This document shows, one piece after another, positions 9,001 through 12,000 of a stretch of 52,839 nucleotides of DNA. The position numbers were made by a program. Position 1 is the stretch's first letter. Each line of letters starts with the position of its first letter. The stretch lies in the IMG/VR virus record IMGVR_UViG_2880372215_000003, one strand, 5' to 3'. This DNA is from a virus (Duplodnaviria; Heunggongvirae; Uroviricota; Caudoviricetes).

Positions 9001-12000
9001 GATGGAAACTGTATTGCATGCACTGAAAGCGATGGGAAAAGCCAATTCTGTTGAACTGGCGGCGCGGCTTGATATCAGCCGTGAAGAAGTTCTTAACGAA
9101 CTGTGGGAACTCAAAAAAATGGCGTTGTTGATAAAACGGGTCACACCTGGTTTCTGGCTGTCGAAGGTGAAGCCGGGGTAACCGAAGGGCAGGCACTACA
9201 ACCTGAAGCGCCGGATGTGGTAACCGAAGAGGTCGCTCCAAAAGTTACCGCAGACATGATGGTTGAGTTTATCGGTCAGGATGGTGCTAAAACGTGTGAG
9301 GAACTGGCGGGTAAGTTCGGCGTCAGTACTCGCAAGGTTGCTTCCACGCTGGCGGTGGTAACCGCAACGGGGCGGCTGGCACGCGTTAATCAGAACGGTA
9401 AATTTCGTTACTGCATGTCGGGGGGTAATTTACCAGCAGATCCGAAAGCCGCGCCGGTAACGAAAAATGATGGTAAGGCCTTTCCTCAGCCAGCAGGTGC
9501 TGCGTTACCAGTCCGGGAAGCCGCAACACAGGAAGAAATTAAAACAGAAACTGTGGCGGACATTGTGCAGCCGTTGCCATCGTTTACCGAAACGCAAGCA
9601 GATGAGCTGATTTTTCCGTCCCTGCGCAGGGCAAACCTGGCGCTGCGCAGGGCGAAAAGTGATGTTCAGAAGTGGGAGCGAGTCTGCGCCGCGCTGCGGG
9701 AGCTGAACAAGCACCGGGATATTGTTCGACAGATTACTGATTCTTCCCGCCGTGTTGTATCGGAAAAGTGATAGCCGGAGGCGCTTATGGCGAAACCTTT
9801 TACACACGAACAGCGTGAAGAACTGAAGGCCCGAATTATCGGGCTGGTACGCAAAAATGAACGCATGACGATATCACAACTGGAGAGAGCGACGGGAGCA
9901 GGCTGGCATTCAGTCAGACGTTGCCTTGTGGATGTACTGGCTTGTGGCGATTTATACATGCCCGGTAAATACGGTGTTTTTACATCAGAACAGGTGTATC
10001 GCGTATGGCGTAAGGCAGCGGAGAAAGCAACCGACCAGACATTGATTCGAAAGTTACCAGACGGAGAAATACGCCGCTACGACAGACAACAGAACATAAT
10101 CTGTGGCGAGTGCCGGAAGAGTGAAGTTATGCTGCGTGTACTGGCGTTCTATCAGGGCAATTTTCAGGAGGCGGTACTGTGAGTGAATTAGCTATCAGGC
10201 TTCAATTGTCGCTGGCATTCGCATCAAAGGAGAATGAGATGACCACTTTTACAAAAGAGCAGTTAATCAGTCATGTTAGTGAAAATGTAAAGGCGATGAA
10301 ATTTGCAGTAAAACAGACAGCATTCAAAAATTCTCTCGAGGCAATTGAGTTGGATTTAGCACTGGCCCTTGTTGCTCAGGCTTCGCTGGAAGCAGAGCCC
10401 GTGCTTTATATGAATCGATTTACCGGAAAGACATTCTCACTGGAAGAGCAACCCGGTGCTGATAAGGAACCGGAAATATACGTGCCGCTATATGCTGCCC
10501 CGCCAGACAGCGCCGCCATGCTTCAGGCTGGAAACTTTCGGGAAAAAAAGGGTTCGTCAACCAATAATTTTCGGGAAATCTCGGAAACGTCAACCAACTA
10601 TCCGGTAACTCTGGATGATTGGATAAGCTGTAGTGAGCGAATGCCGGATGATGGTCAGCACGTAATTATTTTATGTGATGGCGCATTCGTTCTTTATGCG
10701 CAATATCGAGACGGTGAGTTTTTTGATGTAGTCCGTAATGGTGATGAATTTTTCGAAACACAGAGCCGCAATGTAACCGACTGGATGCCGCTACCAGAAC
10801 CGCCGCAGGAGGTGCGCCAATGATCTGGCCTGAAGCCTTTGCAATTACAGGCGTTGCTATAGCTATTGATTTTTTAGTATATGTTATTTGTCGGTGGGGG
10901 TAAAAACGTTCGCCGGGATTCACACCAAAGGAGGGAATATGTCGGATGATATTTCACTGGCAATGGAAGGTGCGCTGGCTGTTATTGCTGTTGTGGGCGT
11001 TTACTGCCTGGTTGTGTTTTTGATGGATCGACTAGGGAACTGAATTCATTACGATATGGGAATTCCCATATCGGGTAAAAACGGTTTGCGGTAAAGCGAG
11101 AGTTAAGTAGAATTGCTGCGGGTGCTTGAGGCTGTCTGCCTCGGGCATGCCACCGTAAGGCAGACAGAGAAAAGCCCCAGTTAACATTACGCGTCCTGCA
11201 AGACGCCTAACATTAATCTGAGGCCAATTTCATGCTAGACACATGTAGGTTAGCCTCTTACGCGCCGAAAGGCAAGGAGAAGCAGGCTATGAAGCAGCAA
11301 AAGGCGATGTTAATCGCCCTGATCGTCATCTGTATTACCGTCATAGTGACGGCACTGGTAACGAGGAAAGACCTCTGCGAGGTACGAATCCGAACCGGCC
11401 AGACGGAGGTCGCTGTCTTCACAGCTTACGAACCTGAGGAGTAAGAGACCCGGCGAGGGAGAAATCCCTCGCCACCTCTGATGAATCAGGCATCCTCAAC
11501 GCACCCGCACTTAACCCGCTTCGGCGGGTTTTGTTTTTTCCTGGCATTCTGGTTTACAATTCGCACGCCAGCCTGAACAACTGGCACCTGCTGCGCCAGC
11601 AGAGACAACCGATGGCGCACGATACCAAATTATACAATTCTGATGATTCTGCCGTCTTTGCCAGCAGGCGCGGACGGTGTTTTTACGCATTCAAATCTGA
11701 CTGGTACCAGCATCCCCCATGCACTGAAGAACAGGCCGAATGGCTCATTCAGTGTTACCGCAGGCGCGGATGCGAGGTTAAAAAAGCCCTTAGCCTCGAC
11801 TACCGTCACTGGATAATCTCCGTCAGGCTCCCTTACTCCGAACGGCCACCGCGTCCGTCCCGCACATTCCAGCAACGGATCTGGAGGTAATGTGCGGGTA
11901 TTACTTCGACCTGTTCTGGTACCGGAACTCGGTCTGGTTATCGTTAAGCCAGGCCGTGAATCAATGTCAGCATTCCATAACGGCAGAATACTGGTGGAGC

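Follow-up and report, generated by a model that had tools for sequence, protein, structure and literature searches.

Two Single-Helix Peptide Genes Next to a Phage hok/sok Locus: Probable Modular Microprotein Genes of Escherichia Phages

Are two very short hydrophobic open reading frames (ORFs) that lie one after the other just upstream of a hok toxin gene real genes, and what kind of genes would they be? The question is raised by a stretch of 52,839 nucleotides (nt) from a virus of the class Caudoviricetes, IMG/VR virus record IMGVR_UViG_2880372215_000003, which in its full length is called the window here. On its + strand, ORF1 (10820..10903) would encode the 27-amino-acid (aa) peptide MIWPEAFAITGVAIAIDFLVYVICRWG and ORF2 (10939..11043), in a different frame, the 34-aa peptide MSDDISLAMEGALAVIAVVGVYCLVVFLMDRLGN. 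An earlier note on this DNA had described two tandem small hydrophobic ORFs of 27 and 34 aa at 10820-11043, each with a near-consensus Shine-Dalgarno (SD) sequence and a single predicted membrane helix, in a nin-like hotspot just upstream of hok, and this description was borne out in all of these points. This study concludes that ORF1 and ORF2 are very probably real, selected and modular membrane-microprotein genes; any specific physiological role assigned to them is at best tentative. ORF1 represents a new and widespread phage microprotein family that is essentially unannotated. For ORF2 the annotation and the translation were already known, and its corrected start, its family, its cassette structure and its linkage to hok are new here.

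The sequence AGGAGG, with an SD score of 6/6, precedes both ORFs. The SD of ORF1 (10807..10812, +) lies within the last codons of the preceding gene, 7 nt before the ATG, and that of ORF2 is found at 10929..10934 (+). The highest mean Kyte-Doolittle hydropathy over 17 residues is 2.32 for ORF1 and 2.95 for ORF2, in keeping with a single helix of membrane-spanning length in each, and 3.26 for Hok. A base-rate test took in every ORF of 20-60 aa that starts with ATG on either strand of the window (n=575), the criteria being an SD score of at least 5/6 and a 17-residue mean of at least 2.2. Only four of the 575 ORFs combined the SD with the hydrophobic core, namely ORF1, ORF2, Hok and an ORF at 19820..19966, and none did so in 20 shuffled windows.

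Natural variants of both ORFs were gathered from complete E. coli genomes, phages, IMG/VR and metagenome contigs, and the ratio of nonsynonymous to synonymous substitution rates (dN/dS) was calculated by the Nei-Gojobori method in the coding frame and in two shifted control frames. ORF1 is represented by 46 unique DNA alleles of 27, 25 or 24 codons without a single frame-breaking indel, and all length differences between alleles of either ORF are in-frame. The dN/dS of ORF1 is 0.12-0.44, compared with 0.7-2.4 in the shifted frames, and the column entropies at codon positions 1, 2 and 3 are 0.41, 0.34 and 0.91 (41 alleles). Residues M1, P4, E5, A6, F7, G11, Y21, I23, C24, R25 and W26 are near-invariant, and the consensus of this single-helix M-x-W-P-E-A-F...C-R-W-G family is M-[TNS]-W-P-E-A-F-x-x-V-G-[IV]-A-M-A-[VI]-A-[LF]-V-V-Y-S-I-C-R-W-G. 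For ORF2, which combines an acidic N-terminus with a single helix, dN/dS is 0.06-0.2 as against 0.7-1.6 in the shifted frames. Five of the six differences between the window allele and copies that are 90% identical are synonymous, and the differences from the most divergent lineage (L021-L024, gut-metagenome contigs) fall at codon positions 1, 2 and 3 in the numbers 4, 4 and 13. The spacer between ORF1 and ORF2 in that lineage cannot be aligned with the window except for CAAAGGAGGGAAT, and the retention of the ORF2 SD in an otherwise unalignable spacer indicates selection on the SD as well as on the frame. In one locus (L003) the start of ORF2 is changed from ATG to GTG, which still allows initiation.

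ORF1-like frames were identified in 99 phage records by tblastn, and an IMG/VR scan gave 511 relatives. Members are found in the Shiga toxin (Stx) phages 933W, VT2-Sakai (Sp5) and Min27, in ArgO145 and phi467; others come from the virulent Vequintavirinae phage Av-05 and from plasmids and phages of the P1-like type. Without exception, the ORF1 start and the stop of the gene before it overlap, as ATGA or TGATG, and an SD-like purine run lies ahead of the ATG. In the window the preceding gene is a DUF551 (EaA-like) early gene (10179..10823, +; Pfam PF04448, E=2e-20), whose TGA overlaps the ORF1 start as ATGA and whose start is placed by the Prokaryotic Genome Annotation Pipeline (PGAP; locus L001) at the equivalent of position 10239. 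The genes ahead of ORF1 have no relation to each other and include DUF551, an Ea22-like coiled-coil protein, an HNH-adjacent protein and others; the SD and the stop/start overlap are kept behind at least five unrelated upstream genes (VT2-Sakai, ArgO145, phi467, Av-05 and a P1-like plasmid). A reading of ORF1 as a C-terminal extension of the DUF551 protein, reached by frameshifting, was rejected because a slippery site is missing and because the genes ahead of ORF1 are unrelated. ORF1 is usually terminal in its transcription unit. For example, an intrinsic-terminator-like hairpin follows it in ArgO145, L098 and L108, and the hok locus follows it directly in VT2-Sakai, L007, L100-L105 and L110-L111.

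Among 185,579 species-representative genomes, the strict N-terminal motif of ORF1 is confined to Escherichia and Shigella, bar three short contigs. These three matches, of 81-96% identity on contigs of 369-1780 nt, are assigned to a Segatella copri metagenome-assembled genome (L194), Acinetobacter idrijaensis (L195) and Xanthomonas pisi (L196), and are most likely due to contamination or mis-binning in public assemblies. The earlier note had supposed that both ORFs fall below the usual annotation thresholds. This holds for ORF1, which none of the inspected RefSeq and phage records annotates (VT2-Sakai, Stx2 phage II, ArgO145, phi467 and Av-05 among them) and which is covered only by a few gene calls in GenBank whose starts are wrongly set upstream (P0033, P0035). 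It does not hold for ORF2, which PGAP lists as a "hypothetical protein" (WP_001278450.1 or close variants) in all RefSeq (O157) records inspected; no paper citing WP_001278450 was found. Over 8,000 blocks of the assembly collection contain the 34-aa sequence, identical or nearly so. Protein searches with an in-frame extension and with concatenated variants of ORF2 returned E. coli sequences only, and a HMMER profile run against 1.84 billion representative proteins gave 12 matches, all of them close relatives. Judged by these searches, ORF2 appears to be an orphan cassette restricted to Escherichia.

The translation of ORF2 has been recorded under the name XECs145 (Sakai 1550761-1550922; Hücker et al. 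2017, PMC5597208). ORF2 is the 3' part of that gene, and the C-terminal part of the XECs145 product is the exact ORF2 sequence. For O157:H7 Sakai in lysogeny broth (LB), that study gives 79.1 reads per kilobase per million (RPKM) in RNA and 346.1 RPKM in ribosome profiling (RIBOseq), with a ribosome coverage value of 4.35 and a coverage of 0.99. The corresponding values in brain-heart infusion are 121.3, 150.1, 1.14 and 0.84, and translation was almost nil under cold/osmotic stress (PMC5597208). The value of 4.35 in LB is high relative to the other entries visible in the S2 table of that study (PMC5597208), which also predicted an inner-membrane location and in which a machine-learning classifier called the gene "real". 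The start was taken there as a non-ATG codon 60 nt upstream, giving 54 aa, so that the SD was missed, and that study made no mention of a function, a family, a cassette structure or a connection with hok. Judged by conservation, the true start would be the SD-preceded ATG at 10939, as in the 34-aa form annotated by PGAP. ORF2 is expressed in uninduced Sakai cultures, a signal to which spontaneously induced cells or multi-mapped reads may contribute. The earlier note had named a lack of translation signal and of frame conservation as what would count against the two genes. What was found instead is a dN/dS well below 1 for both ORFs and RIBOseq coverage of ORF2.

ORF2 lies in a unit of its own. 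The unit (about 10909-11072) is bracketed by 11-nt direct repeats, GGGTAAAAACG, of which the left copy is at 10898..10908 (+) and the right copy, at 11073..11083 (+), belongs to the conserved upstream boundary of the hok locus. In L007, VT2-Sakai and other loci without the ORF2 unit, this element alone links the ORF1 stop to the hok promoter (..TAAAAACGGTTTGCGG..), and the boundary ..AAAAACGGTTTGCGG.. recurs upstream of many hok loci. Its neighbours are conserved, and at the defined junction between them ORF2 is present in some loci and absent from others, as is expected of a moron.

A second ORF2 clade occurs in the phages Tritos, Evi and HannyBb. Its members are 29-30 aa long (MVLVLKCALAIAAVMAIYCLAVVLMDRLSD), start with GTG, have their own SD, are unannotated and lack ORF1 upstream. 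They occupy the position that ORF2 has in the window and end about 10 nt before the hok -35 hexamer and about 35 nt before the -10 hexamer. The ORF2 allele of L021 (..AVMAIYCLVVFLIDRRGS) bridges the window-type and Tritos-type clades. About 40 nt upstream of the Tritos-type start, hexamers of the form TTGnnn-17-CATATT were observed in Tritos (L031), HannyBb (L199), Evi (L200) and related IMG/VR loci. Across five divergent Tritos-type lineages, TTGAAT, TTGAAG, TTGCTG or TTGATT and CATATT are kept at an exact spacing of 17 nt, while the spacer between the hexamers and everything upstream differ. Hexamers that are kept while the spacer varies have the signature of a real sigma-70 promoter, here a probable one that scores below the threshold of the consensus scan; in Tritos and HannyBb the scan did detect TTGGCG-17-TAGAAT, the equivalent of the hok promoter. 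Neither the window nor the Tritos-type loci scanned showed a terminator belonging to ORF2. With no terminator before hok, the Tritos-type promoter would give a 5'-extended transcript into the hok locus.

The linkage of the two ORFs to hok was analyzed from both sides. In 80 IMG/VR loci anchored on ORF2, hok follows in all 78 that contain enough sequence, and the ORF1 upstream is intact in 69, two residues shorter in 10 and absent in 1. From the other side, 120 phage hok loci were sampled by a conserved hok-mRNA motif, of which 106 had enough flank; the counts are uncorrected for prophage relatedness. ORF1 alone was found upstream in 24 of the 106 loci, ORF2 alone in 22 and both in 16, so that 62 (58%) carry ORF1 and/or ORF2. 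Six more have a different, 59-aa two-helix ORF ending in ..MAVMCIEYWR* at the same boundary, which brings the loci with a small membrane-protein ORF to ~64%; 10 have remnants of ORF2 or of a palindrome described below, and 28 have none of these. This ORF, with two predicted helices (MKNALQFLFVAFWLFASCMPIIFTARYMEKVDVLILIFGYINALFLGVFMAVMCIEYWR), comes from L215 and five similar IMG/VR loci, where it lies no more than 350 nt ahead of the hok motif, and it adds a third type to the membrane peptides encoded beside hok. The commonest Hok protein (46 identical copies) was found with every upstream class. Hok therefore needs neither peptide, there is no co-variation and the linkage is modular; an obligate partnership with Hok was rejected on this ground. 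In addition, insertions of IS5 or IS3 were seen to have removed ORF1 and the DUF551 gene and to have left ORF2 and hok intact (L006 of E. coli E41, and L011). These insertions are consistent with a persistence of the ORF2-hok pair in decaying prophages, possibly through hitch-hiking on the addictive hok/sok module.

In the reading proposed here, ORF1 and ORF2 would be two separate genes for single-pass inner-membrane microproteins of distinct phage accessory families, each travelling as a small module in the company of phage hok/sok loci. ORF1 would be the terminal gene of an accessory segment of the early operon and may be made by coupled translation or re-initiation while early transcription is on, after induction or infection. 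ORF2 would be an independent cassette with its own SD, inserted after the ORF1 stop and ahead of the hok promoter, and appears to be transcribed and efficiently translated even in uninduced lysogens. The acidic N-termini (MSDD..E in ORF2, ..PE in ORF1) would face out and the R-containing C-termini in. The conserved end motifs, WPEAF and CRWG in ORF1 and YCL...LMDRL in ORF2, suggest a specific membrane partner rather than non-specific disruption of the bilayer. The role may be a dispensable accessory function of the moron type, which would most likely modulate a membrane process of the host or of the phage, connected with exclusion or with hok-assisted lysis.

Several points weigh against this reading. 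Neither ORF has homology to characterised proteins in Pfam, NCBIfam, PHROGs, PADLOC or the profile search of 1.84 billion proteins, so that a mechanism through a membrane partner is one that we only infer. Searches of Pfam, NCBIfam, PHROGs and PADLOC with the window peptides and seven natural variants gave sub-threshold noise only, neither peptide matched a Pfam or NCBIfam family at E<=1, Hok/Gef (PF01848) included, and neither is present in the supplement of "The Cryptic Bacterial Microproteome" (PMC11188072). ORF1, at 27 aa, is below the 30-aa cut-off of the RIBOseq study, so direct evidence of translation covers ORF2 only, and the XECs145 reads may multi-map among several prophage copies in Sakai. 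As a driver in lysogens, no convincing promoter was found for the window-type ORF2; the authors of XECs145 gave a weak prediction 173 bp upstream, with a linear discriminant function (LDF) score of 2.13 (PMC5597208). The enrichment upstream of hok is open to the effect of prophage relatedness. ORF1 also shows signs of relaxed constraint in some lineages. Phages like POCJ13 have a TAG as codon 3, as do 44 of 5,426 complete E. coli genomes, a stop at W26 removes two residues in 10 of the 80 loci, and the window allele itself carries A17D in the hydrophobic core, which is unique among 41 full-length alleles. Phages tolerate the loss of ORF1, which is dispensable.

The TAG alleles were noted in L003, L007, L008 and L010 (Shigella phage POCJ13), at locus position about 721-729, in lineages that keep ORF1 well in other respects. 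All of them have the upstream haplotype AAGGAGGTACGCCA in common and therefore probably have a single origin and were spread by recombination. The change from ACC TGG to ACC TAG falls in a Dcm site (CCTGG), a hotspot of 5-methylcytosine deamination; the AGC TAG allele does not.

The alternative explanations can be weighed against the same evidence. The earlier note had suggested membrane-active toxins, exclusion peptides or peptides of lysis timing. Small size, a single hydrophobic helix and a position beside a bona fide type I toxin would suit membrane-depolarising type I-like toxins, silenced by antisense RNA and lethal when expressed, and the minus strand has two sites that resemble consensus promoters, one across from the start of ORF2 and the other across from the 3' end of ORF1. 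Such sites occur at chance level, however (3 found against 1.8 expected), and these sit in sequence already constrained by coding and the SD. There is no match to an Rfam antisense family, nor to Hok/Gef or another toxin family, and the start of ORF1 overlaps the stop of an ordinary early gene, to which its translation is probably coupled. ORF2, unlike repressed toxins, is efficiently translated in normal growth, with its ribosome coverage value of 4.35. This translation, and the failure of the Rfam and minus-strand scans to detect an antisense element, make ORF2 a poor fit to a classical type I toxin, and toxins of this kind are considered improbable. A holin or antiholin would be placed in the Q-dependent late lysis cassette by the endolysin, whereas both ORFs lie in the early replication/nin segment, upstream of Q and with the lysis genes several kb downstream; the early-region position makes a holin-type role unlikely. 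No match to exclusion proteins of the Sie, Imm or Cor type or to defence-system models was found in PADLOC, PHROG or Pfam. A role in cis would give the peptides a secondary part. The translation of ORF1 and ORF2 would keep the early transcript ribosome-covered up to the hok promoter, and after induction read-through would enter hok/sok, disturb the convergent sok promoter and trigger Hok. Both ORFs run in the same direction as hok, neither the window nor Tritos-type loci have an intergenic terminator that separates them from it, the conserved upstream boundary of hok takes in the ORF1 stop, and induction of Sp5 removes sokW RNA and turns HokW on early (Takada et al. 2021, PMC8621323). A dN/dS well below 1 and conserved terminal motifs indicate, on the other hand, that the amino-acid sequences themselves are selected, and a constraint of this strength suggests that the peptides are more than ribosome carriers. 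In addition, lambdoid antitermination already suppresses polarity, a strong terminator stands between ORF1 and hok in some lineages (group L202), and 28 of the 106 hok loci have no such ORF, which leaves the role in cis quite unlikely.

Two further explanations question the ORFs as such. ORF1 and ORF2 could be halves of one two-helix protein, joined by slippage (a -1 frameshift or transcriptional slippage) at the run of five G that ends ORF1 (TGG GGG TAA; 10896..10900, +), or recently split by mutation. Natural ORF1-ORF2 fusions of 74 aa do exist, in P0005, P0008, P0009 and L025 (1501-1725), and rare variants with six G in a few metagenome or Logan contigs (P0008, P0009 and L025) produce such fusions; other database variants imply four or seven G. 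The ORF2 frame is open back into the ORF1 3' end, and an AlphaFold2 model of the fusion is a helical hairpin of two helices, whose modest confidence (predicted local distance difference test, pLDDT, 71; predicted template modelling score, pTM, 0.41) makes it uninformative. The run is constant at five G in all 69 scoreable IMG/VR loci, so that the variants with four, six or seven G would be rare mutations or sequencing errors, and a hypervariable G-run serving phase variation or programmed frameshifting was rejected for the same reason. The fusions come from different indels, ORF2 has its own conserved SD and ATG or GTG start, and each ORF is common without the other; a single split protein is thus hardly credible. 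Equally hard to credit is that the ORFs are chance frames or decayed, functionless relics. They are very short, and ORF1 is unannotated and has null alleles, but the base-rate test, dN/dS, codon periodicity, SD conservation, RIBOseq and persistence across hundreds of phage contigs all speak for genes.

The reading of the ORFs as selected accessory genes invites comparison with known systems. Morons, as reportedly described by Juhala and colleagues in 2000, are autonomous accessory units inserted between conserved phage genes. ORF2 resembles them in its presence or absence at a precise repeat-bounded junction, in its apparent expression from the prophage and in the probable conserved promoter of its own in the Tritos-type clade. 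It differs from them in that no terminator of its own was found, in that the window-type lacks a recognisable promoter and in being far smaller than is typical. Like Hok/Gef proteins (PF01848; for example hokW-sokW of Sp5), to which they are adjacent and co-oriented, ORF1 and ORF2 would be small phage-borne inner-membrane peptides with a single helix. In contrast to these, they have no sequence similarity to Hok, no mok-like leader, no fold-back mRNA elements and no antisense RNA detectable by Rfam; they are also shorter, lack the periplasmic C-terminal domain of Hok and, in the case of ORF2, are translated in normal growth. Small regulatory inner-membrane proteins of E. coli such as AcrZ, MgtS, MgrB and CydX (reviewed in PMC12648545) are comparable in having 25-50 aa, a single helix and conserved residues at the helix ends, and in being often missed by annotation. 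Unlike these, ORF1 and ORF2 are non-homologous, have no known partner, are phage-borne and are restricted to Escherichia and Shigella.

A wider and rather speculative proposal, to which only a small probability is given, is that peptides of the ORF1 and ORF2 types and the third, two-helix ORF form a previously unrecognised hok-associated class of membrane peptides in Escherichia phages, and that the peptides or the coupled read-through would tie early phage transcription to the disappearance of Sok RNA and to the switching on of Hok. During induction of Sp5, sokW RNA is abolished and HokW appears about 1 h before the endolysin, the trigger being unknown, and deletion of the hokW-sokW locus halves phage release (Takada et al. 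2021, PMC8621323). An ORF1-type gene lies immediately upstream of hokW and is co-directional with it in VT2-Sakai/Sp5. As there is no intergenic terminator before hok in the window, early read-through could collide with the convergent sok promoter. If the proposal is true, this class would set the early Hok-assisted phase of lysis and release described for hokW-sokW; if the peptides are unrelated cargo, they are an ordinary pair of accessory microproteins. The recurrence of membrane-peptide genes upstream of hok/sok is in any case a testable lead on how prophage induction switches on Hok and hence the release of Stx phages. ORF1, a conserved unannotated gene in well-studied Stx phages (933W, Sp5/VT2-Sakai) and hundreds of other Escherichia phages, also exemplifies the genes that are missed through annotation length cut-offs.

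The surroundings of the two ORFs are those of the early rightward operon of a lambdoid prophage, between the replication genes and DUF968/RusA/Q, and for this position "nin-like" is a fair description. Downstream of the right repeat lie the probable promoter of the hok mRNA (TTGCGG, 16 nt, TAGAAT; 11086..11113, +), assigned by reading the sequence, and the hok/sok locus (11120..11444, +; Rfam, PGAP and ORF list), with the mRNA leader and sok region, mok (11232..11444) and hok (11289..11444), which PGAP names HokD. The Rfam match to sok (RF01794) covers 11120-11294 with 116.9 bits, and even at permissive thresholds (E<=1) no RNA family other than this neighbouring sok was found over ORF1 or ORF2. 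The terminator scan of the window gave a sole + strand candidate upstream of hok, which lies within the ORF2 coding sequence. The repeat search identified a perfect 22-nt palindrome, CGATATGGGAATTCCCATATCG, after the ORF2 stop (11052..11073, no strand), which has no T-run and is therefore not a canonical terminator. It forms a hairpin in both the minimum free energy and the centroid folds, and the RNA fold of the ORF2 region is unexceptional (z = -1.5). The palindrome is retained at hok loci without ORF2 (groups L210, L299 and L306). In L021 and L025 a C is replaced by T, which keeps a G-U pair in the + strand RNA and hints at an RNA hairpin on that strand rather than a protein-binding site.

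Elsewhere in the window, the fourth ORF selected by the base-rate test (19820-19966, +) encodes 48 aa and lies between ORFs of 189 and 155 aa in the lysis region; it belongs to no Pfam family. A related O157 prophage has a 48-aa hypothetical protein, WP_000539792.1, between antirepressor-like and lysis-protein genes, which corresponds to this ORF by position and length. Lastly, Rfam identified the small RNA (sRNA) DicF at 4223-4274 (-), three tandem tRNA genes at 14210-14456 (+) and the sRNA STnc100 at 15235-15406 (+), which is the usual set for a lambdoid prophage of the O157 type.

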